Below are positions 4,590-15,636 of a stretch of 64,000 nucleotides of DNA, piece after piece. This DNA is from an uncultured delta proteobacterium (GTDB taxonomy: Bacteria > Desulfobacterota > Binatia > UBA9968), in NCBI GenBank assembly GCA_963847445.1, contig CAWJZV010000046.1, positions 422,564 through 486,563 on the forward strand, written 5' to 3'. Both the position numbers and the translations under genes were made by a program. The notes beneath the pieces are model-generated. The model was not told the origin of the DNA. It saw nothing but the letters and a program-made list of their open reading frames with translations, and ran no database searches. Positions within the stretch are counted from its first letter, which is position 1; every line of letters begins with the position of its first letter.

Positions 4590-5895
4590 TTACTGTTTGA
4601 TATCTCGCGGCGCGGTCTTTTTTAGCAACAAGGCGAGAAGCTCGAGGCGCTCCTTAGAAAGATTCTTGAGCGCGGATGACGAACCATCGCTCTCGCGGGC
4701 ATACGCCTCTTGCTTCACCGCAGGCACAGCAGCCAGATTTTCCAGATATTCCTCAACCGGCGCGATCGAAAGCTTCGAAACGTAATTCTCTGCGGCCTCC
4801 CGGGAGGCTGTGGATAGCTCGTCATAATGCTGCCGATCAGAGAGAAGTCGCTTCAACGCGTCGAGCCAAGGCCGAATATCTTGATCGGGGACGAACGGGA
4901 CTGGAAGCATCTGGTCATCTCGGCGCGTCTGGTAGCGCGCGATGGGCTCAACCGGCAAGAGATAGTCCACGCCTAGTTTTGCTTCGGGTAGGCCGCCAAG
5001 ATTGCTAGCCAAGACCGGGATTCCTCTGAGCATCGACTCGACGACGATCTTGCCAAAGGCTTCCCCCCACAGCGATGGCACCAGCATAATGCGGGTCCGG
5101 GCGAAAATCTGATCTATATCCTCGGTCGGCTGAAGCAGCTCCACATTAGGAAATTGTTTTAGGGCAACCCGGTCTGCAGCGGTAGTGGCCCAAGTCGGCA
5201 CTGCGGCAAACCTTTCCGCAGGTAAAGCGCGCGCCAGCTCTAAAAAAATGGCAATGCCTTTGATCGCCGACGGGTTGACCATCGTAATGAAGGCGTTATC
5301 CAATGATCCGGAGTGGGGCCACGGTGGGCTCCCGTAAGCCGGCAAGGAAATGGCGACCGAGTCCAGGCCGCCCCATTTATAAATATAACTCTTCAGGTAA
5401 TTGCTGACCGCTATGATTCCAGCCGTCCGCTGTAGCATTTGTGTCCTTCAACGGATCCGGCGAAAAACACTCGGGACCGAAAGGCAGAGTCGCCTGGCTG
5501 TGCGATAGATAAACAACACGTCCCGGCATGCTCTCCAGGGCAGCCGCCAGGGCAAGATAACTAGGATCCTCGGATATCAAAATCCAATCCGGCGAAAACT
5601 CTCCGACCTGCTTCAGAAGCTGGCCGCAAAATTGACTGGTGTCGGCGAGTTGGTGAACCTGAACGCCCTGGAGATCAAATCTCTCGGTGCAAGGCGAGAA
5701 TCCCGCTTCGGTCGGATTCAATGACTCGTTGCGCGATCCGCGGCGCGACGCGAAATGCGTTGCGGTGTGCGCCAACGCGAGGACTCTGCACAGGTGGCCT
5801 CTTCGGCTAAGATATTGCAGCAGCTCGCGGTTTGATTTTGCCGCCCCGGTCCAGCTCGGCGAATACGATAATTTCTGCGCCAGAAATATTTTCAC
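4590..5895 (-). CDS. Glycosyltransferase family 4 (GT-B) with C-terminal docking-like helix (frameshift near 5440)
   Basis: N-part MKIFLAQ..GAAKSNRELLQYLSRRGH; C-part PSLWGEAFGKIVVESMLRGIPVLASNLGGLPE; tail NLSKERLELLALLLKK. Confidence 0.85.
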
Positions 5896-5908: not shown

Positions 5909-8107
5909 TCAGTCCTGGCTCTGATCTCTTCTGGCTAGCAAGGATTCAACCTGATCATCGGATAGTCCTTCGATTTTCTTCAAAACCGCATCAAGTTCAT
6001 CGACGCTGGCTGCATCGGCTTGTGCCATTAGAATCTCTCGGCAGAGTCCGCCAATAGTAAGTTTAGTCGTAAAGAATAGTCTCACTGGGAGCTCAACGCC
6101 CAAATCTTTTCGGATGCGGGAGAGAACCTGCATACCGAGAAGGGAGTGACCTCCCAAATCGAAAAAGTTGTCATCGACGCCAATACGCTCCAATCCCAGC
6201 AACTCCGACCACATGTGAGCCAGACGGTACTCGAGCGGAGAACGCGGAGGCACGAACGGCACGACGTCCCGCGGCAGAGGACGGCGCGTTTGTAAAACCA
6301 CCTGGTGGATTCGCTCGGCGTCATTAAGTTCAATGGCAATAGAACTTAACAGCGACGCCTTTTCTCGGGCATCTCCCGAATCGGCGGAAATGACCGAAGG
6401 AGCCTCGTTCTCGGCGCTCGTCGCGGTGATTGTCGCCGCCTCCGGCGGCCGGTATTCGATGGCCGCCGCATACACGGCGGGAAATCTGAAAAGAAAACCT
6501 CCGTCAATTGTTTCCTTCAAATCCGCGCCGACAATCTCCAAAAACTCCAAGGCGGGGCGATTTTTCTTGGTTTGGAGATAGCGCACTTCGACTCGGTTTA
6601 AACCTCGCTGCATGGCAATTTCGCCTAGTCTCGACAGCAGGCGATGCTCGACGCCTTTGCCGAGCGCGCGACAGCTCAGCAGGAAGGTGTCCACGAGAAT
6701 GCCATCAACGGCGGTAAAAATTATCACGCCAACGAGGCCATAGTCGCCAAACCGGTCTCTCAGGTTTACGATGAGACACTCCGCGTCGTGTCCTTGACAG
6801 AGGCGCTGAATGTCGCTCTCGGAACGTCGCTGGGTCGTAAAGTTAAACTGATTGGTTCTCTGGGTTAATTCCGCCACGCGGGGAATTTGCTGCGGAACTA
6901 ATGGCGAAATCTCAATTTTCAGATCGAGACCCGCTAGAAAATCCCTGAAACTAAGCGATGCATTGTGAAAGCTCGTCCGCTCTGAGCTCTGTTTGTAGGC
7001 TAGATTGCGTTGTTGCCCCTCGGCGGTGACCTTGAGATGATCAAAGATCCACAGATGTGATAAAAACCGCCCCGCCTGTTCCGGGTCCCGCGGAACTTGG
7101 AAGGTTAACACTTCAGGGCAGTGCGATTGCACTTCCGCGCACTCGACAGGATCGTCATCGAGAAAGATGAAACTGTCGCTGCCGAGGTTCAACTCCTGCG
7201 CTAAAGCTCTGATGTTTTCCGATTTTTGCCGCCAATTGATTCGCCGGGCGACAAAATGTTCGAGTTTCAAAGGCATATCGGAACGATTTGCAAACACCTC
7301 GACGACATCCGCTTCATTGTTTTTGCTGCACAAACAAAGAAGCATTCCGGCATGATATTGTTCGAGCAGGAACTCTTGGATTTTTTTCCACGGCGGAGTT
7401 ATCGCTATGCCAGCCGCGCCTTCTTCGCCGCATACCCCGCCCCAGAGCGTCTGATCGCAATCCAACACGATTACCTTATAGGGGTTGCTCGTAAGGCTGT
7501 AAATCTTCCGCGCGAGCATTGTCGCCAAGGCGCTGAAGAATAATGGCGTGTACGGGATATGGGCTAAACTGTCAGTGTGAGGATCATGATATTCCGCTAC
7601 CGGATAGCAGGCGAATAGTTCAGCTGGCGAAATGACGTGGACTCCAGGTATTTCTTGCAATTCGGCCTGCAGCGACGCTGCTATATCTTCGAAAAATCGT
7701 TTTCTGTCCGGGTCCATCACAACCGCCGGTGACGCCGGACACAAACAGACGATCTGCGGCGTCGCCGAGCGCTCGGCGGCGGTTGTAACGGCGCGCGCAA
7801 AGTCGCGCGCGTCACGTTCGAGCGCCGGAAACGACAGTTCGGCAGCTTGCCGCCCTGCGGCACTCTTTTGCCAGTCTTCAAAGCATACCAGAATAATATT
7901 GACACCCGTGCGGTTGGTGCCGAGCAAGCTAGACGGATCCACGAGCTGTTGAAATACCTGGTTGTACGGCGCAAAAGTGATCCGCGCCGGTATCTGGAGT
8001 TCCTCCAGCCAGAACGTCAGCGGTCGCTCGAGGGGCTCCGCCGTAAAGGTAGCAGTGATCGCAATCGTTCGCTCTGCGTTCCTAGGATCCAATTCATCAT
8101 TCAACAT
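5909..8107 (-). CDS. FkbH-like (HAD-IIIC) glyceryl transferase/phosphatase with C-terminal carrier (PP-binding) domain
   Basis: KVIVLDCDQTLWGG, CSKNNEADV, FLDDDPVEC, LTQRTNQFN, DRFGDYGLVG, LSCRALGKGVE; carrier motif FFDLGGHSLL. Confidence 0.93.
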   Translation of the reverse strand: MLNDELDPRNAERTIAITATFTAEPLERPLTFWLEELQIPARITFAPYNQVFQQLVDPSSLLGTNRTGVNIILVCFEDWQKSAAGRQAAELSFPALERDARDFARAVTTAAERSATPQIVCLCPASPAVVMDPDRKRFFEDIAASLQAELQEIPGVHVISPAELFACYPVAEYHDPHTDSLAHIPYTPLFFSALATMLARKIYSLTSNPYKVIVLDCDQTLWGGVCGEEGAAGIAITPPWKKIQEFLLEQYHAGMLLCLCSKNNEADVVEVFANRSDMPLKLEHFVARRINWRQKSENIRALAQELNLGSDSFIFLDDDPVECAEVQSHCPEVLTFQVPRDPEQAGRFLSHLWIFDHLKVTAEGQQRNLAYKQSSERTSFHNASLSFRDFLAGLDLKIEISPLVPQQIPRVAELTQRTNQFNFTTQRRSESDIQRLCQGHDAECLIVNLRDRFGDYGLVGVIIFTAVDGILVDTFLLSCRALGKGVEHRLLSRLGEIAMQRGLNRVEVRYLQTKKNRPALEFLEIVGADLKETIDGGFLFRFPAVYAAAIEYRPPEAATITATSAENEAPSVISADSGDAREKASLLSSIAIELNDAERIHQVVLQTRRPLPRDVVPFVPPRSPLEYRLAHMWSELLGLERIGVDDNFFDLGGHSLLGMQVLSRIRKDLGVELPVRLFFTTKLTIGGLCREILMAQADAASVDELDAVLKKIEGLSDDQVESLLARRDQSQD

Positions 8108-8128: not shown

Positions 8129-9629
8129 TTAGGCGATGTGACCTGACCATAAATGTGCAGCAGCCTTACTGCTCTCGAGCTGGTGCACCGTCACGAGGCG
8201 TCCGACAACGGCTTCGGCGAGCGCGACGCGCGGATAGCGGCCCTGTGGCCCGCCCCCGGAAGCATCGATGTTTTTAGCGCCGGCGAGGTTGACCCAAAAG
8301 GGATCATCTTCGGTCCTCGGCTTATCTGGGCCGACCATACGGCGCAGCGCGGCCGCGCTGCGCCAGCTTGCGGCTCCAACGGCAATCCAGCATTGGTAGC
8401 GGTCCGGACTAGTCGTTAAAGTCAAAAACGCGTGAGGTCGCACCGCTTCGGCTGCCTGAGAATCGAGTTGATCGACCATTACCATCAAGGGTTCGCCCGG
8501 CCGGTCATTGGTCAGAGGCCGGATCATAACGTTTAAGTTTCCGATCGTCTGCAGCTTGCAAATGCGCTGGCAATCTCTCGAATAGTTGGTCGGGATCTAA
8601 AGCAGCCTCGGAAACAAGCAACTCGCCGGAATCAGTCGTCAGCAACAAGTCAAACCGATCCTTATCGACAGACAAAAATAGCGCAATGATGAGCTGCGCC
8701 TGCTCCAAGCAGGAGCGGGAATCAGTCGGTCCAGTTTCGCGGACGTCGAGACCGGTCATCAGGCGACGGTGCCCTCGGGCCCAGCGTGAAGTTGTGTGAT
8801 CCGCTTCAGGTGCAGTCTTGTCTGTAAAGAAGCGCACGGTCGCGACGTTCCACTTTTGATTAAAATGCTGGACTGTCCTCAGGTTCCAAGCTTCACTCCA
8901 GCGCAACATGAAATAGGGTAGATCCGACTCTTCACAAGGAGGCGGCGGAACGTAGCTGGTGACCGCCGTCGGCTCGATGTATACCGCTCCTCCGGCCTTT
9001 TGCACTTCCAAACACAGGTCAATGTGCTCCTGGTGGCTCAATAACTTTTCATCCAGCGGGCCGAGTTTCGCGAACACGTCCGTGCGAACCAACATGCAAT
9101 GGAATTCCGCGTAGTCCCAAGCGCTTCTTTGGAGCGGCACTTCTAGGTTAGCCATGGGAGTATCGAAAAGATATTGCTCGTCGTAAAGCACTCTTTGCCC
9201 TTGTTGCTCGGTGAATTTTAAAATTCCCCCCGCCATGTGGATCTTCTGGCGCTCGATCTCACCAAAAAGATAAAGCGGTCCGACAATCCATGCTCCTGTT
9301 TCTTCGGCGCATTGCACTAAGGCCTCGAGCCAACCGCGCGTGACCAGCGCATCATTGTCCACGAAGACGATGTATTCGGTGCTGATCTCGCTGGCGCCGA
9401 GATTTCGCGCTTGGTTAGGCGACAAAAATTGGTCCGTGTGGATAAGTTTGAAGCCCTTTGATTCCGCCTTCGCTGCGATCCGACGGTACATAGGTTCGGG
9501 GGTGCCGGCGCTGACGTAAATCAGTTTGAAAGGAAGTGTCGTTTCCTGGTAAACGTTTTCGAGGGTGCGCTCACTATGGCTGAAACGCTCCCTCGGTACT
9601 ATCACGACGGTGACTTGTGGTTCTGACAT
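8129..9629 (-). CDS. Glycosyltransferase family 2 fused to a RepB'-type DNA-primase-like domain (apparent single-base frameshift at about 8533)
   Basis: GT2: VTVVIVPRE, ARNLGA, FVDNDA, EHIDLC. Removing one A joins DDRKL to NVMIRP...VDQLD...AFLTLTTSPDRYQCWIAV...LAGAKN...YPRV, a RepB-primase-like pattern. Confidence 0.7.
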
Positions 9630-10019
9630 AATAAAAGACTCAGGTATCGGCCGATCCCGTTGCAGATCATTCCAGCTTCTAACTTCCTTTTGCGGAATCT
9701 GACCGGCCGCATGCGGTCCTGACTTCTTGCTCCTTTTTGTCCATCACCGGCATTATCGTACATTATCCACGTATCCGCCAAGCGAATACATTATCGGCAG
9801 TCGATCGAGCTTCGGCGGTCTGAGCTGCAATATGACGGAGTTCGCTCTAGCGGTTAAAATCAGTCAGAGTCTTCGGGTCGGAAGTCTCAGGGCGGGTTCA
9901 GACTTCGTGACAAACTAAGCCTAGTCGCGCCTGCCGGTCGGTAGTGCAAAGCTCAAAATGAAATCCACGGGGGTTCGGTTTTTACCTTATCAGTTACCGC
10001 TGGCAAAACCCGAAAATGA

Positions 10020-11042
10020 TTAAGCTGATTGGGGCTTGGTTTTTCCCATTCCAAACGACTCCGCCAGCAGTTCGTAGGAGCGATGGCGCGGCGCGGGATC
10101 GTAAGTCCATGTGACCACGACCAGCTCGTCGAGGTCGAGACCTTTCGCGAGTTCTTTCAATCGCGTGGTGACCTGGTCTGAAGACCCGACAATCGCTTTC
10201 CGGTGTAACTTTTCCGCAATCGCCAATTCAGCGGGCGAATACGGGCGGGTGGCTTCCTCCGGCGACATCAGCGGCTGGCGGATGCCTAGTTTGCGATCGA
10301 TCATGGCGCGCTCGCGCGATTTGAACTGGAACAGGGCTTCTGCTTCGGTATCGGCGGCCAGCGCCCAGACGCATATCGTGCAGATCGGCTTGGGATTATT
10401 TTCGCTCGGGCGATAGTTCTTGCGGTAAAGATCCAGTGCTTGCTCGACACCAAAGCCGTCGCTGAAGAAGTAGGCGAAGGCGTAGGGCAAACCAAAATAG
10501 GCCGCGAGTTGGGCGCCGTAGTCTGAGCTGCCGAGAATCCACATCTCCGGACTCGTCGGTCCCGTCGGTTGGGCAACGATTTTCTGAAACGGGTGGCCTT
10601 CGGGCAGCGGTTTCCCGGACACCCAGTGTTGCAGCTCCTGGACTTGCCGGGGAAATTGATCATGGACATTCTGCGGGTTCGGATTGAGCGCGTAGGACGT
10701 CAATTGATCCGATCCGGGGGCGCGGCCGATACCCAGGTCGATGCGTCCCGGCGCGATGGCCTCCAGGACGCGGAACTGCTCGGCGACTTTCAGCGCCGAA
10801 TAGTGCGGCAGCATGACGCCGGCGCTGCCGATACGGATGCGCGGCGTGGTGGCGGCGATCGCCGCCATGAGGATCTCGGGCGCGGTGCCGACGATATTAC
10901 CGGAGTTGTGATGCTCCGAGACCCAGTAGCGATGATAACCCAGCGCGTCGCAATGGCGCGCGAGCTCGAGGGTCTCACGGATCGCATTGTCCTGCGCTCG
11001 GCCCTTGGCCGCCGTCGATTGATCGAGTACTGACAATTTCAT
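10020..11042 (-). CDS. LLM-class flavin-dependent oxidoreductase (luciferase-like)
   Basis: MKLSVLDQS, RYWVSEHHN, RIGSAGVMLPHYSALKVAEQF, GRIDLGIGRAPG, WILGSS. Confidence 0.93.
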   Translation of the reverse strand: MKLSVLDQSTAAKGRAQDNAIRETLELARHCDALGYHRYWVSEHHNSGNIVGTAPEILMAAIAATTPRIRIGSAGVMLPHYSALKVAEQFRVLEAIAPGRIDLGIGRAPGSDQLTSYALNPNPQNVHDQFPRQVQELQHWVSGKPLPEGHPFQKIVAQPTGPTSPEMWILGSSDYGAQLAAYFGLPYAFAYFFSDGFGVEQALDLYRKNYRPSENNPKPICTICVWALAADTEAEALFQFKSRERAMIDRKLGIRQPLMSPEEATRPYSPAELAIAEKLHRKAIVGSSDQVTTRLKELAKGLDLDELVVVTWTYDPAPRHRSYELLAESFGMGKTKPQSA

Positions 11043-11250
11043 GGATGACCTGCGTGTCGGGCACAGTTCATTGTCGAGTTTGTTGGGAAGAGCATTCATC
11101 ACGAATAATACAGTGCGGCAAGGCCGCAACCAAACACCGGAATATCTCGCGCCAAGCTCGCAAAGACCACCAAGTTGTGAGATCAAATCTCCTTGGGGCC
11201 GGGGTTGGGAGGCGTTCGCGTGCGCGCACTTGGCGCGAGAAACGCCTCGG

Positions 11251-12167
11251 TTAACCGAGCCGATCGCCGACGTTTAATCCCGCCTGTTTGGCAAATTCCG
11301 CAGCCGCTGACTCTTGGCGCCTGCGCCGCGGGCTTTTTTCACGGTTAGAGTGCCACCGTTGAGGGCGATGGTGATTTCTGCTCCACCGATGCCGGTCACC
11401 TGTCCGGCTGGCGCGGCATTATTGCCAGTCTGCAGCCGCGCGTCGAAGATGCGCACCAGCTTGCCGTTGTAGGTCGTGTGCGCGCCGGGTTGGGGGTCGC
11501 AGCCGCGGATTAGGTTATAAACTTCCTGCGCCGGTTTGGACCAGTCGATCTTGGCATGGGCGTCGTCGCAGATGGGGTCGTAATTGGCTTTGGATTCGTC
11601 TTGGACGATGCGCGGCGGGTTGCCGGCTTTGATGAGGTCGACCGCTTCGCCGATCGCTTCGATGCCCAGGGGAAAGATTTTGTTGAAGTACAACGATCCG
11701 GTGGTGTCGTCCGGCTCGATCTTCACTTCCTTTTGCAAGAGGATCGGCCCGGTGTCGATGCCTTTGTCGACCCAAAATAGCGAAAGTCCGGTGACCGATT
11801 CGCCTTTGATCAAGGCCCAGTTGATGGCGCTGGCGCCGCGATACTTGGGCAAAAGCGACGGATGAAAGCAGATGCTGCCGAGTTTTGGCACGCTGAAAAC
11901 TTGCTGCGGGACGATCTGGGTGACGAACGCGAGAATCGCTAGATCGGCGTTCAACGCGACGAATTCGTCACACACTTCCGGCGCTTTGAAGGATTTAGGC
12001 TGGCGCACCTCGATGTGGAGATCGATGGCTTTCTGTTTTACCGGGTCGAATTTGCCGTTGGGCGGATCGGGCGGGCAATAGACCGCGACCACTTTCTCGC
12101 CTTTGCCGACGAGTTTTTCCAGAGTCTTTTCGGCAAACGCCGCTTGTCCGATCAATATTATTCGCAT
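11251..12167 (-). CDS. Formyltransferase (Fmt / 10-formyl-THF dehydrogenase N-domain-like); indels near C-terminus
   Basis: FHPSLLPKYRGASAINWA, DKGIDTGPIL, IDWSKPA..VYNLIRGCDPQPGA. Confidence 0.85.
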
Positions 12168-12232
12168 TTGGTGAAACTCCGAAATTGTAGAGCTAGCGCG
12201 TTACGAAGACGAGCCACGATCACGATTTCTCG

Positions 12233-12760
12233 TTAGCCGATGATTTTAAAGTCGCCGCCCTTGTAGCTCCGGCATAGATTGACGTAGGTGGTTGAGCCCA
12301 TCTTGATCCAGTGCAGCGCTTCGCCGGTAATTTCCTTCTTGACCTTGGCGGGCGCGCCGGCAGCGAGCACTCGAGGCGGGATGATCGTGTGCGGCGTTAC
12401 CACGCTGCCGGCGCCGATCAGGGCTTCTTCGCCGATCTCGACATGTTCGAGCAGGGTGACGTTCATGCCGATGATCGCGCCGCGCTTGACCAGCGGACCT
12501 TCCATGATTGCGCCGTGGCCGATGGTGCAATCTTCTTCGATGATCGTCGGTGCTTCGCCGGAATGAATCACGCAGTTGTCTTGCACGCTGGTGCGGGCGC
12601 CGATGACGATGGGATTGGCGTTTTGATCCGAGCGCAAGACCGCGCCCCACCAGATGCTCGCTTCATCGCCGATGGTGACATCGCCGATGATCACTGCGGT
12701 GGGCGCGATGAACGCCGTGGGAGAAACATGGGGCCGTTTGCCTTTGTATTCGATGAGCAT
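12233..12760 (-). CDS. Gamma-carbonic anhydrase family hexapeptide-repeat protein (YrdA/CaiE/PaaY-like)
   Basis: AFIAPTAVIIGDVTIG, IGARTSVQDNCVIH, TIGHGAI, AGAPAKVKK. Confidence 0.9.
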   Translation of the reverse strand: MLIEYKGKRPHVSPTAFIAPTAVIIGDVTIGDEASIWWGAVLRSDQNANPIVIGARTSVQDNCVIHSGEAPTIIEEDCTIGHGAIMEGPLVKRGAIIGMNVTLLEHVEIGEEALIGAGSVVTPHTIIPPRVLAAGAPAKVKKEITGEALHWIKMGSTTYVNLCRSYKGGDFKIIG

Positions 12761-12970
12761 GAAGAGCGAACCTCCGTAGATAAGTCACGATATTGGACGT
12801 GCCCGGGGAAATCAAGATTGTTGGTGCAATGTCGCGAGTGTGGATTGACTCGATTGGTAAAATTGTTAATGCTTTGCCAACTTTGCAGACCCTCAACCTA
12901 GCCCTCTCCCGCATGCCCGGGCGAGGGGAAAAGATTAGGAGAGCGGTCGATACCTATTGGAGGTTAGATT

Positions 12971-14038
12971 GTGAGATATTTTGCTGTCTTTGCGGTTTCG
13001 CTTTGGCCACTCATCGGTGCAGTGGACGTCGCGCTCGCGCAGACCCGCGAGGCGACTCTCGCGGCGCTGGGAAAACTTCCCGCCGCGGAGCGCCAGGCGC
13101 GTTTGGTCGAGGGGGCGAAGAAGGAGAACGGACTGGTTTGGTACTCGAGCACGACGGCGGAAGATGCGCTGGCGCTGAGCAAAAAGTTCAATGAGCAGCA
13201 TCCGGCGATCAAGATCAATCACTTCCGTTCGTCCAGTGAGAAGTTGCTCGAACGGATTCTCGCCGAATCCCGCGCCAATGCTTTCAAAGCCGACATCGTT
13301 ACCTTGCCCGAGCTGGAACTGTCGCTGATGATCCGGCGCAAACTGTTGCTGCGCTACGAAGCGGTAGAGAATTCTTTCTATCCCGCCGAGACCAAGGATC
13401 CGCGTGGTTTCTGGACCGGGCTGTACACCTCGGCGTGGGTGCCGGGCTACAACACCAAGCAGGTGGCCAAGGATCAGGCGCCGCGGACTTACAAAGATCT
13501 GCTCAACCCCAGGTGGAAGGGCAACATGGCGATGGATAACGAGCCTTTCAACTGGTACGTGATCTCGCTCAATTATCTAGAAAAGCGCGACGGCAAGGAG
13601 GCCGCGGCCAACTACATGAAGCAACTGGCGGCGCAGCAGTTGCAATGGCGCAAAGGCCATTCGTTGATCGGCCAACTGATGGCGGCGGGCGAGTTTCCCC
13701 TCGCCGCCGAGCTGCAAGTGCACACCGTGGAGCGCGCCAAAGCGACCGGCGCACCGGTCGAATGGTCGGTGCTCGACGGCGTGATTCCGATTTCTAAAGT
13801 CGGCGCGGCGGTCACCAGTACCGGGAACAGTATTTACACTTCGGCGCTGTTTTTTGATTTTCTCTTGTCGCGCGGCGGCATGGAGACGATCCGCGCGAGC
13901 CGGCGGATCCCGACGCGGCCGGATGTCACGGCGCCGTACTTAAAGCCGTACAAGCTCATCCCATTCGAGCCCCAGGCGATCGACGATTTCGACAAATACG
14001 TGACGTTGTTCCGCGATACCTTCAAGCCGGGAAATTAA
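12971..14038 (+). CDS. ABC transporter extracellular solute-binding protein (Fe3+/AfuA-like family)
   Basis: Signal peptide; GAKKENGLVWYSS, YNTKQV..PRTYKDLLNPRWKG, ALFFDFLLSRGG. Confidence 0.85.
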   Translation: MRYFAVFAVSLWPLIGAVDVALAQTREATLAALGKLPAAERQARLVEGAKKENGLVWYSSTTAEDALALSKKFNEQHPAIKINHFRSSSEKLLERILAESRANAFKADIVTLPELELSLMIRRKLLLRYEAVENSFYPAETKDPRGFWTGLYTSAWVPGYNTKQVAKDQAPRTYKDLLNPRWKGNMAMDNEPFNWYVISLNYLEKRDGKEAAANYMKQLAAQQLQWRKGHSLIGQLMAAGEFPLAAELQVHTVERAKATGAPVEWSVLDGVIPISKVGAAVTSTGNSIYTSALFFDFLLSRGGMETIRASRRIPTRPDVTAPYLKPYKLIPFEPQAIDDFDKYVTLFRDTFKPGN

Positions 14039-14210
14039 AATACTGGACACTGGAGAATGCAAAATTGACAACGCCGGTCGGAGTTAAGCGCGTGAGTGAC
14101 TCTTGGCGTTGAGCTGGTCTCAATTCCTTCTACGGCGTGGCGCGGGTAGAAAGCCTTTCGTTGCTGTGGTTTAACTATTGCGCCGCTCTGCATTTTGCCG
14201 CTACCGACCC

Positions 14211-15636
14211 GTGATTTCACCGTCATCGACTCATAACAGCGAAACCATTCGCCGTCTGGTTCTGATCAATTCCATCTTGGGTGTGACCATCGCGGGAGCT
14301 TCCGCGCGGGTCTTCATGATCTCGGTGCCGACGCTGGCAACGGCGCTCGATACCGACATGTTGGGCATCTCTTGGGCGCTGATTGTTTACCAGATGGCAG
14401 GTATCGGCCTGGGCGTGATCTGCGGCCGGCTGGGAGATATTCACGGCCACCACAAGACCTACGGGATCGGTATGTGGGTGATGGCGCTGGCTTCACTGCT
14501 CTGCGGCTTTTCACAAAATATCTGGCAGTTGATACTGTTCCGCTTTCTCCAGGGTATCGGCGGCGCGATAATTCAATCTTCGGGACGCACGCTGGCTTTT
14601 AAAGCGATGCCCGCCGGCGTCCGAAGGAAAAGCCCAGGGGTTGATGGCGATGTCCCATCAATTGGGCTTCTTTATCGGTCCCCCTATCGGCGGGCTGATC
14701 ATCGATCTGGTGCATTGGCGCGGGGTTTTTTTTCTCCTGTTTGTCCCGAGTCTGGCGGGCGCGGCTTTGTGCATGATGACGGGGCGCGCCGCGGCTGCCG
14801 CACCAATGCGCCGGCAGGCGATCGATTACCGCGGCGCCTTGCTGCTCTTCGCCTTGACGGTACTCGCGACGTTGTTGCTTGATCAAAAAGTCGCCCAGGC
14901 GGTGGGCACCGGCAGCGAGCTGTTGTTGGGGTCGGTATTTCTCGCCGCGCTGTGGCTTTTTCTTGTCCACGAAAAGCGCGCGCCCAGTCCGCTAGTCGAT
15001 CTATCGATTTTCTCGGTTAAAGTTTTTGGCTATGGCTCGGTGGGGCTGTTGTTCTGCAACATCAACCAGGGCCTGTCCACCTTCATCACGCCTTTTTACC
15101 TGCAACAGGTGCTCAACTTATCGCCGACGTTCATGGGCGCGATTTTTCTCGTGCCGTCGTTGTTGAGCATGGTGTTGTCGCCGGTGAGCGGCGCTCTCAC
15201 CGACCGCATCGGTTCGCGCTTGCTGTTGATTGTCGGCGTGCTGGTGCTGATGGCGAGCTTTATCATCGGCGCCTACCTGCGCAGCGATTCTCACTGGCTG
15301 CTGCCGACGATTTTGTTAGCTCTTACCGGTATCGGTTCGGCATTTTTCAACACGGCATCGCAGGCGGCGATGATCCGCGCCTTGCCCAAGGAAAATTGGG
15401 GCACGGCGATCGGCATCATCAACGGGGTTTTCGGTCTTGGCCATATGCTCGGCATTTCCTTGAGCGGCATCTTCTTGACCCTGGCGTTTCGCTACTACAC
15501 CGGCGATGCCGGCGCGACGCCCGACCCGGCGAATAGCTCTTTGTTCGTGGCGGCGATGAATTTGACCTACGTCTTTGCTTTGGCGCTCGCCGTCATCCCT
15601 TTGTTTACCTCGACTAAGATCAAGGGCAGGGAATAG
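14211..15636 (+). CDS. MFS transporter (DHA2/EmrB-like; frameshift near 14620)
   Basis: GRLGDIHG, LILFRFLQGIGGA, GPPIGGLI..HWRGVF, GALTDRIGSR; many hydrophobic helices. Confidence 0.88.

Follow-up and report, generated by a model that had tools for sequence, protein, structure and literature searches.

A glycosyltransferase with a RepB'-type primase fold, encoded next to an FkbH-carrier gene in an uncultured bacterium

A fusion gene at the likely head of a three-gene operon

The locus lies on the minus strand of the window (the whole 64,000-nt stretch of DNA analysed here), where a gene for a glycosyltransferase with a primase-like C-terminal part, broken in the assembly, precedes genes for an FkbH-domain protein with its own carrier domain and for a further glycosyltransferase:

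9630 to 10019, minus strand: intergenic region of 390 nt ahead of the fusion gene, where the three-gene operon probably begins, with no minus-strand ORF of at least 80 aa
8129 to 9629, minus strand: fusion gene, GT2 with RepB'-type fold, 499 aa, broken by a one-base surplus into two ORFs one frame apart; its orthologues are intact at 499 aa
8940 to 9620, minus strand: domain of the GT2 (GT-A) glycosyltransferases, spanning residues ~4-230 and containing an invariant D-N-D (PF00535, PF13641)
8132 to 8714, minus strand: RepB'-type (AEP) primase-fold domain with an incomplete catalytic set, residues ~306-499 (~194 aa), spanning the frameshift; supported by profile, model and residue tallies
8537 to 8543, no strand assigned: site of the surplus base, T-run 8538-8540, which splits the gene in the assembly; the closest relative lacks one base at 8538, and public contigs bear on the same site
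5909 to 8107, minus strand: protein of 732 aa with an FkbH domain and, at the C-terminus, a carrier domain of the PCP type; the gene starts 21 nt after the stop of the fusion gene
4590 to 5895, minus strand: GT4 glycosyltransferase, third gene of the operon, split into ORFs 5377-5895 and 4590-5438, with Glyco_transf_4 in one and Glycos_transf_1 in the other

The earlier note on this DNA had placed the fusion gene within an FkbH/GT4 operon, and the FkbH and GT4 genes do adjoin it downstream. The product of the second gene matches FkbH (TIGR01686) with 307.1 bits (cut-off 146.65) over residues 211-530 and PP-binding (PF00550) with 58.1 bits (cut-off 20.8) over residues 629-691, the latter region resembling the PCPs of NRPSs; the GGHS serine motif of the carrier is invariant in 12 sequences. 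With an FkbH domain above the cut-off and a carrier bearing the phosphopantetheinyl serine, the protein belongs to the FkbH type. The GT4 gene is one base longer in the window than in the closest relative (genome G003) at position 5444, and in the latter it forms a single ORF of 434 aa. A scan for promoters and terminators gave counts at chance level, and a promoter-like site at 9781-9752 (minus strand) is not evidence for a promoter, 6 such sites having been found where 4.6 are expected by chance. No NRPS or thioesterase gene occurs within ~8 kb of the window locus or of its in-genome paralogue.

The two ORFs of the first gene (8505..9629, 374 aa, and 8129..8527, 132 aa, both on the minus strand) share 23 nt and are offset by one frame, and removal of one base near their junction gives a single frame of 499 aa. 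The earlier note had proposed precisely such a joining, by deletion of a base from the T-run at 8532-8534; the joining stands, whereas the base itself is probably to be sought in the T-run at 8538-8540. A deletion in either run restores the frame, but in a DNA alignment with G003 the surplus base falls into the latter (GTTTCC in the window against GTTCC), and this comparison favours the reading ..DDRNLNVMIRP.. across the junction. The three public-run contigs that bridge the junction (X1, X7 and X10, from three studies) all have one base fewer than the window, at 8537, 8543 and 8537, respectively; these contigs represent relatives 90-99% identical to the window rather than reads of the window genome itself (a further contig, X2, leaves the junction uncovered), and the highest share of window words in any public run is 0.53.

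The claim that the fusion is a true one gains support from intact genes elsewhere, and the search for such proteins that had been suggested was successful. The orthologue in G003, 92% identical over the 132-aa downstream ORF, is one unbroken ORF of 499 aa, seven further relatives or paralogues (eight with G003) have likewise intact ORFs, their lengths falling within 492-510 aa, and 9 of 11 clusters from a collection of 5.8 billion proteins consist of a single ORF of 498-500 aa. The division of the window gene by one surplus T is most probably an indel introduced by the assembly or, failing that, a mutation of very recent date; an assembly error is likely because, in the window, the syntenic block of 11 kb contains two further split genes, GT4 and an MFS gene, the former being unbroken in G003. 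A real frameshift in the strain, which would have left a fresh pseudogene, or a separate GT2 beside a 132-aa fragment, or a gene read by programmed frameshifting, would account for the presence of the extra base in the assembly and for the ATG with which the downstream ORF begins. We nevertheless consider it improbable, as the orthologues are all in frame, the base is missing from each bridging contig of the close relatives, dN/dS over the downstream part (0.18) speaks against relaxed drift, and splits of the same kind affect two other genes within 11 kb. Moreover, a fragment started from that ATG would lack ~60 N-terminal residues of the domain, among them the first helix and two strands of the structural model. 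Programmed frameshifting was rejected specifically, a frameshift at this site being absent from all relatives compared.

The glycosyltransferase domain

The fusion protein is a soluble family-2 glycosyltransferase. Its N-terminal part scores above the Pfam cut-offs (in parentheses) for PF00535 with 47 bits (23.3), PF10111 with 34.7 bits (27.3) and PF13641 with 31.3 bits (27), the match to PF13641 covering residues 4-230, and contains a DxD-type motif whose residues D91, N92 and D93 do not vary among 8 relatives. The closest NCBIfam match of this part is the mycofactocin glycosyltransferase MftF (TIGR03965), a distant likeness with 63 bits, far under the cut-off of 280, and a search of the ESM Atlas with the full-length orthologue returned generic GT2 clusters only, with scores of at most 0.87. 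Much nearer is the FMLRWSE/LSPNQARN subfamily of soluble GT2 proteins (330-400 aa, common in cyanobacteria), to which the N-terminal ~300 residues of the fusion are 40-52% identical. Members of this subfamily have the same invariant DND, but they carry neither a primase-fold domain nor an FkbH-carrier gene as a neighbour (0/65).

A RepB'-type primase fold at the C-terminus

Primase domains of the AEP/RepB' kind have been described in replication, in repair and in mobile elements. The C-terminal part of the fusion protein is homologous to one of them, RepB' of plasmid RSF1010, in both sequence and fold. As the earlier note had stated, it follows the RepB primase pattern: the motifs NVMIRP, VDQLD, YQCW and LAGAKN are present and align with the RepB-primase consensus. 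A profile built from 8 C-terminal domains and searched against PDB sequences retrieved RSF1010 RepB' (3H25 with an E-value of 5.2e-8, 3H20 with 1.2e-7), it also picks up 494 representatives at E<=1e-3, and 30 of 42 profile-retrieved proteins that were scanned match Pfam RepB_primase (PF16793) and/or RepB_primase_C (PF22448) at E<=1e-4. An AF2 model of the domain, computed for the orthologue sequence from a 78-row alignment, has a pLDDT of 93.4 and a pTM of 0.89; it replaces an earlier fold from 8 sequences only, with a pLDDT of 60.9. The structural comparison with RSF1010 RepB' that the note had called for gave a clear outcome, Foldseek matching the model to 3h20 with an E-value of 7.3e-9, a probability of 1.00 and a TMq of 0.67. 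VIA-align superposes the model on 3H20 over 158 residues (Z 14.9, rmsd 3.0, 19% identity), and its Z-scores fall from 14.9 and 14.0 for RepB' to 10.4 for S-2L PrimPol, all other structures staying at or under 7.1. The model and both comparisons identify the fold as that of the RepB' catalytic domain.

Against PF16793 itself the downstream ORF reaches 12.6 bits (E 0.13), under the curated cut-off of 24.3, and none of the 8 full-length fused proteins matches this family at E<=1. Annotation pipelines miss the domain because it falls below the Pfam threshold, and automatic annotation will read the locus as two genes. When the C-terminal helix-bundle domain that priming requires, RepB_primase_C (PF22448) or PriCT-1, was sought, no match to PF22448 was found in the 8 fused proteins at E<=1, and according to the secondary structure of the model the fold ends within ~10 residues of the protein C-terminus.

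Depleted catalytic residues and an acidic charge

At the positions of the catalytic aspartates the window orthologue has D, Q and D, i.e. D-Q at the DD motif, and the motif IV Arg before LAG, which we take to be R145 of RepB', is replaced by N; the alterations noticed before, from DDL to DQL and from R to N, are both confirmed column by column. Among 16 alignment rows from GT2-fused proteins, Asp1, Asp2, Asp3 and Arg are kept in 10, 6, 4 and 3 rows, compared with 51, 50, 50 and 50 of the 51 canonical RepB-like rows, and the Asn of AGxxN in 2/16, compared with 51/51. The Ser of the TS motif is found in 0/16 fused rows, both aspartates of the first motif occur in 6/16, and the Gln of motif II is kept in 13/16. 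The residues retained in fused and canonical domains alike are the Arg (15/16) and Pro (16/16) of IRP, the Trp (16/16) and the Gly of LAG (16/16). Hence neither the aspartates at the positions of D77, D78 and D134, labelled as the catalytic ones of RepB' in a figure legend of PMC4434180, nor the motif IV Arg together with the AGxxN Asn are preserved as sets in the fused rows; motif II Gln and an essential motif IV Arg are described for the AEP family in the text of its survey (PMC5862659). The charge has changed as well, the median pI being 5.6 for the fused domains (range 4.3-6.9) and 9.3 for the canonical RepB-like ones.

The relationship to RSF1010 RepB' (3H20, 3H25; PF16793; AEP superfamily) can accordingly be described as a shared fold with IRP, the motif II Gln within YQxW and LAG in common, from which the fused domain departs in lacking the conserved Asp/Asp/Asp/Arg, AGxxN and TS positions and the C-terminal helix-bundle domain, in being acidic instead of basic, and in standing behind a glycosyltransferase in a biosynthetic operon rather than being plasmid-borne or associated with a relaxase. 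Judging from its residues, the fold would no longer make primers. Measured against G003, the GT2 part has a dN/dS of 0.21 and the C-terminal domain one of 0.18, and the latter value indicates that the domain is still functional and under purifying selection. Some members may retain residual nucleotide chemistry, because 6/16 keep both first-motif aspartates and 3/16 the Arg. We also considered NDP-sugar synthesis, i.e. nucleotidyl transfer by the primase fold, and judged it unlikely, as the metal-binding aspartates are not conserved.

Linkage to an FkbH-carrier gene among relatives

Within the best 80 of 531 related loci, an FkbH-carrier gene directly follows the fused gene in 15/15 cases and a GT2-only relative in 0/65, with the qualification that the other loci could include fused genes that lack FkbH; in the count of 15, the FkbH-carrier ORF is truncated at a contig end in two loci (L019, L030) and present as two ORFs in two others (L026, L027). 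The in-genome paralogue has the same gene order as the window, and a second glycosyltransferase gene comes next in most of the fused loci among these 80. NRPS genes near fused genes encode C-A-T-TE (L018, L023), C-T-TE (L025) or a GT4-C-A-T fusion protein (L021), a PPTase gene is found at L018, and A-T proteins also occur in related loci.

The fusion has been retained in 15 species-level genomes. In a quick tree of the GT2 domain the fused proteins stand on one side of a branch with an SH-aLRT support of 99, and the 15/15 linkage does not amount to 15 independent events, because the fused proteins group together; on this sequence evidence, the fusion and the FkbH linkage may have arisen once and then been inherited. 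The C-terminal domains have meanwhile diverged to 23-45% identity in records labelled as several phyla, and other neighbours vary over the same span, with a GT4 or a GT1-type enzyme and with an NRPS present or absent. The possibility that the domain is the remnant of an inserted mobile element was rejected in view of the 15 species-level genomes, the purifying selection and the absence of relaxase and integrase genes from the scanned ORFs.

What the primase fold may do

Taken together, these observations make it quite possible, and we tentatively propose, that the fusion protein, the FkbH-carrier protein and the second glycosyltransferase operate together as one functional unit, the dead primase fold serving as an adaptor and the surplus T splitting the gene in the window. 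FkbH domains load 1,3-bisphosphoglycerate onto T domains and dephosphorylate it, as described in the text of PMC8949500. In the proposed scheme, whose acceptor substrate, on-carrier glycosylation and adaptor role we infer, the FkbH domain, following the established chemistry of its family, would load glycerate from 1,3-bisphosphoglycerate onto the phosphopantetheinyl carrier domain of the same protein, and the tethered glycerate would be glycosylated by the GT2 domain and then by the GT4 or GT1-type enzyme. The dead primase fold would present the transferase with the FkbH-carrier protein or with the loaded arm of that protein, and in related loci an NRPS of the C-A-T-TE type would join an amino acid to the glycosyl-glyceryl unit by condensation and release the product. 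A complex prediction for the C-terminal domain and the full FkbH-carrier protein, run without controls, scored 0.27 against a mark of 0.32. An initial idea of charge complementarity, with a basic DNA-binding surface reused for an acidic carrier, was dropped, since the C-terminal domains are acidic and the carrier regions range in pI from 4.1 to 11.3.

Two other views of the domain have to be weighed against the adaptor. The primase fold may serve the glycosyltransferase itself, as a module for structure, oligomerisation or allostery, and never touch the FkbH-carrier protein directly, the linkage then reflecting shared descent of the operon. The single origin of the fused clade on the GT2 tree agrees with this, as does the fact that the residues common to fused and canonical domains (the Arg and Pro of IRP, the Trp, the Gly of LAG) look like fold core and not like a new interface. 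We regard it as rather unlikely all the same, given that the linkage was kept while the C-terminal domains diverged so far and every other neighbour changed, and that the unfused sister clade never has FkbH nearby (0/65, in the best 80 of 531 loci). Still less probable, in our opinion, is a domain that continues to bind nucleic acid or a nucleotide, as in the nucleic-acid-directed modification (here glycosylation) or the new nucleotide-handling step that the earlier note had suggested. The fold is, to be sure, that of an NTP- and ssDNA-binding enzyme, and the motif II Gln, Asp1 and, less often, the pair of first-motif aspartates persist. Against this stand the depletion of Asp3, the Arg, the AGxxN Asn and the TS Ser, the D-Q and N of the window orthologue, the acidic pI, which argues indirectly against DNA binding, the lack of a helix-bundle or PriCT-type domain, and a neighbourhood of FkbH, carrier, GT and NRPS genes with no genes for DNA modification or restriction.

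The GT2/RepB'-fold architecture appears to be undescribed. In agreement with the earlier note, no description of it was found in the literature searched, and the word 'glycosyltransferase' has no occurrence in the text of the AEP-family survey (PMC5862659); for AEP architectures, that text speaks of three patterns and gives primase with PriCT-1 and relaxase with primase. Glycosylation of carrier-tethered glycerate was likewise not found in the literature searched. An old DNA-replication fold thus seems to have been reused in small-molecule biosynthesis, and a selected, catalytically depleted primase copy on a glycosyltransferase would represent a clear case of a replication fold put to use outside nucleic-acid metabolism. 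With more reserve, we raise the rather doubtful possibility that a RepB'-type fold from the replication of mobile elements was turned into a non-catalytic carrier recognition domain, that the GT2 glycosylates glycerate on the FkbH-loaded PCP, and that the triad marks an undescribed class of glycosyl-glycerate (peptide) pathways in uncultured bacteria of soil and sediment. The strict pairing with the FkbH-carrier gene leads to a testable idea, namely that sugar is transferred to a carrier-tethered glycerate starter with the help of a new kind of docking domain, and the compact triad of GT2-primase fold, FkbH-PCP and second GT can be used for genome mining.

Assembly lines primed by FkbH from a glyceryl-S-carrier, such as those for cystomanamide and vioprolide or, for tetronate and methoxymalonyl units, their counterparts, have the same combination of FkbH with its own carrier domain. 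The NRPS C-A-T-TE that follows in several of the related loci is a further resemblance, which the window locus, with no NRPS nearby, does not share. What sets the present loci apart from these lines is that two glycosyltransferase genes bracket the FkbH-carrier gene, one of them with a primase-fold domain.

A single gene interrupted by a surplus base

The features of the fusion locus and of the other split genes nearby are as follows.

Split genes in the window.
8505..9629, minus strand: upstream ORF of the fusion gene, 374 aa, family-2 glycosyltransferase (GT2)
8129..8527, minus strand: downstream ORF of the fusion gene, 132 aa, part of the C-terminal domain (C-domain)
4590-5895, minus strand: GT4 gene 3' of the FkbH gene, split into ORFs 5377-5895 and 4590-5438
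14178-15636, plus strand: MFS transporter gene, split into two overlapping ORFs of 234 and 331 aa

The first two ORFs overlap by 23 nt and are offset by one frame. The upstream one is a GT2 protein (PF00535, 47 bits; cut-off 23.3), and the downstream one, taken alone, scores 12.6 bits (E 0.13) against RepB_primase, below the cut-off of 24.3. The earlier note had read the pair as one fused gene broken by a single base, and the comparison with relatives indeed bears out the fusion. The orthologue in the closest relative genome, G003 (92% identical), is one ORF of 499 aa; seven more relatives, including a paralogue on contig 42 of the window's own genome, have fusion ORFs of 492-510 aa; and of the 11 clusters matching the C-terminal part in a collection of 5.8 billion proteins, nine are 498-500 aa long. 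The 132-aa piece is present in 6 of the 41 related genomes searched (the window's own counted), all six from the window's genus, and in none of the 16 genomes of other families of the same order. Eight of its nine matches besides the window's own copy sit in open frames of 497-517 aa, the ninth being a weak match of 37 residues in a related genome, G008.

DNA alignment with G003 confirms that one base is surplus but places it in the T-run at 8538-8540; the adjoining run at 8532-8534, to which the indel had been assigned, is a substitution site relative to G003. All three public-run contigs bridging the site, from three studies, are one base shorter (at 8537, 8537 and 8543), these contigs representing relatives 90-99% identical to the window rather than source reads. 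Contigs from a fourth run lack coverage of the site, and any one public run holds at most 0.53 of the words of the stretch. Against G003, the GT2 part has a dN/dS of 0.21 and the C-terminal part one of 0.18, and we conclude that the fusion gene is functional in this lineage.

The likeliest cause of the split is an indel in the assembly; a very recent mutation is less likely. Two other genes are split within the 11-kb block syntenic with G003, namely those for GT4 and the MFS transporter. At 5444, in the GT4 gene, the window is one base longer than G003, where GT4 is a single ORF of 434 aa. In the MFS region the window has bases that G003 lacks, at 14466 and 14619. The block holds several one-base differences inside coding regions, pointing to indel errors in one of the two assemblies or in both.

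A predicted RepB'-type primase fold

Eight C-terminal domains were combined into a profile (A2), which at E<=10 hit three sequences in the whole PDB: RSF1010 RepB' (3H25, E 5.2e-8; 3H20, E 1.2e-7) and a Bep effector (E 0.63). Against 1.84 billion representatives, the same profile retrieved 494 proteins at E<=1e-3. When 42 of these were scanned against Pfam, 30 had RepB_primase and/or RepB_primase_C, four were GT2 fusions, one had HTH domains only and seven matched no family. An AlphaFold2 model of the orthologue's C-domain from a 78-row alignment (pLDDT 93.4, pTM 0.89) has RepB' as its top Foldseek hits (3h20, E 7.3e-9; 3h25_A, E 2.2e-8), followed by the AEP domain of cyanophage S-2L PrimPol (8.3e-4) and then by cellular and plasmid primases. 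VIA-align gives Z scores of 14.9 (rmsd 3.0, 158 residues) and 14.0 against RepB', 10.4 against S-2L PrimPol and at most 7.1 against all others. The C-terminal domain is thus, judging from profile and model, of the RepB'-type primase fold, in agreement with the likeness recognized in the earlier note, which had staked its reading on the existence of fused homologues and of an AEP/RepB' structural match; both were found.

Three further database proteins carry the domain in other architectures. P0124 (749 aa) has a GT2 match in two stretches and a primase-fold domain at 555-702; P0022 (572 aa), near the fused clade (E 2.9e-42), combines an unknown N-terminus of 285 aa with a retained RepB_primase_C; and P0013 (312 aa, PF06283) matches the first ~52 residues of the C-domain only.

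Degeneration of the catalytic site

In RepB', the conserved catalytic aspartates are D77, D78 and D134, according to PMC4434180, and the motif II Gln and the essential motif IV Arg are described in PMC5862659. Alignment A4 sets 16 GT2-fused domains against 51 canonical RepB-like proteins of ~300 aa.

Conservation of motif residues in canonical and GT2-fused domains.
DD motif, first Asp: canonical 51/51; GT2-fused 10/16
DD motif, second Asp: canonical 50/51; GT2-fused 6/16
Third Asp (GAD): canonical 50/51; GT2-fused 4/16
Arg before LAG: canonical 50/51; GT2-fused 3/16
Asn of AGxxN: canonical 51/51; GT2-fused 2/16
Ser of TS motif: canonical 50/51; GT2-fused 0/16

The window's orthologue has D, Q, D and N at the four catalytic positions, so that the suspected alteration of key residues holds for it and for much of the fused family. 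Common to both groups are the Arg and Pro of IRP (15/16 and 16/16 of the fused rows, respectively), the motif II Gln (13/16), a Trp (16/16) and the Gly of LAG (16/16). The fused clade is characterized by the Cys of YQCW, seen in 13/16 of its rows versus 1/51 of the canonical ones. The fused domains are acidic, with a median pI of 5.6 (range 4.3-6.9) versus 9.3 for the canonical proteins, and no helix-bundle domain was found after the C-domain in the fused proteins. The lost catalytic residues, the acidic pI and the missing helix bundle together make primer synthesis by the fused domains very unlikely and, as far as sequence can tell, DNA binding doubtful; the nucleic-acid-directed function proposed earlier is not supported. 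The paralogue on contig 42 retains the DD motif.

Linkage to an FkbH-carrier protein

The fusion gene opens an operon on the minus strand with an FkbH gene and a GT4 gene, as the earlier note had it. Beginning 21 nt past the fusion gene (8129-9629), the gene at 5909-8107 encodes the FkbH-carrier protein (732 aa), in which an FkbH domain (TIGR01686, 307 bits; cut-off 146.65) is joined to an NRPS PCP-type carrier domain at the C-terminus (PP-binding, 58 bits); the GT4 gene follows after 13 nt. No NRPS or thioesterase occurs within ~8 kb of this locus. Upstream, a G003-syntenic block (10020-12760, minus strand) encodes an MsnO8-family luciferase-like oxidoreductase, an fmt/ArnA-like formyltransferase and a gamma-carbonic-anhydrase-like hexapeptide protein, none of them conserved beside the fusion in other loci. 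A second, intact triad lies on contig 42 of the same genome (locus L013, 18000-37999; genes 10446-15398), with a 496-aa fusion, a 746-aa FkbH-carrier protein and a GT28/EryCIII-like transferase instead of GT4, surrounded by NMT1-like binding proteins and a DUF5924 protein.

Scanning 185,579 species genomes (one per species) yielded 531 loci that encode a relative of the GT2 part. The 80 best of these were scored with HMMs of our own making, one each for GT2 part, C-domain and FkbH-carrier protein. The fusion is found in 15 of these best 80 of 531, with an FkbH-carrier ORF directly downstream in all 15 (truncated where the contig stops in L019 and L030, and present as two ORFs in L026 and L027). 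These are not 15 independent observations: a quick tree of the GT2 domains, built by maximum likelihood, puts the 15 fused proteins on one side of a branch (SH-aLRT 99), and the fusion with its FkbH linkage may have arisen once. With the 11 protein clusters, these counts mark the family as rare. The other 65 loci, mostly cyanobacterial, are GT2-only (open frames of 323-629 aa, most 330-400); our HMMs found neither the C-domain nor an FkbH gene in any of them, and a single one, L056, has a carrier-domain match and nothing more. Several Leptolyngbya-type genomes carry unfused GT2 relatives as tandem paralogues, two or three within ~8 kb in the cyanobacterial loci L037, L044 and L049.

The third gene in most loci scanned encodes a second glycosyltransferase, GT4 or GT28/EryCIII-like. 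As exceptions, a 4Fe-4S protein follows in L015 (the same locus as L024), and a DUF6817/HD protein lies between the fusion and FkbH genes in L016 (the same as L019). NRPS parts occur at some fused loci: C-A-T-TE in L018 and L023, C-T-TE in L025, A-T proteins in L018 and L016/L019, and a phosphopantetheinyl transferase in L018. The C-domains have diverged to 23-45% identity while the FkbH pairing persisted, other neighbours have been exchanged, and the record labels cover several phyla; because the pairing outlasted all this, a functional link between fusion and FkbH is favoured.

Comparison with known systems and a possible role

Structurally the C-domain resembles RepB', but it departs from the primase family in most defining features: its score is below the Pfam threshold, its catalytic residues and motif IV Arg are not conserved, and both a helix-bundle domain and a mobile-element context are missing. 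The name that suits it best is RepB'-derived pseudo-primase domain. The part of PMC5862659 on domain organization gives three patterns for the RepB' family, naming primase + PriCT-1 and relaxase + primase, and the word 'glycosyltransferase' is absent from its main text. A full-text literature search turned up no description of GT2 fused to a primase, nor of FkbH-loaded glycerate being glycosylated. What appears new is the combination, the parts (GT2, RepB' fold, FkbH loading) being known, and it leads to a concrete and testable functional hypothesis.

FkbH domains are known to take 1,3-bisphosphoglycerate and dephosphorylate it to give glyceryl-S-carrier, as described in PMC8949500. Sugars might be put on the tethered glycerate first by the GT2 domain and next by the second glycosyltransferase, the dead primase fold being a putative adaptor to the FkbH-carrier protein. 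At loci with NRPS modules, the glycosyl-glyceryl unit would be condensed with an amino acid and then released. In L021 (11764-16311), GT4 is fused to NRPS C-A-T in one 1515-aa protein encoded directly after the FkbH-carrier gene, physically tying glycosylation to the assembly line. The N-terminal and HAD part of the window's FkbH-carrier protein (residues ~47-365) matches 3slr_A (BF1531; E 1.7e-38), an uncharacterised solved protein, and a structure without an assigned function thus exists for this part.
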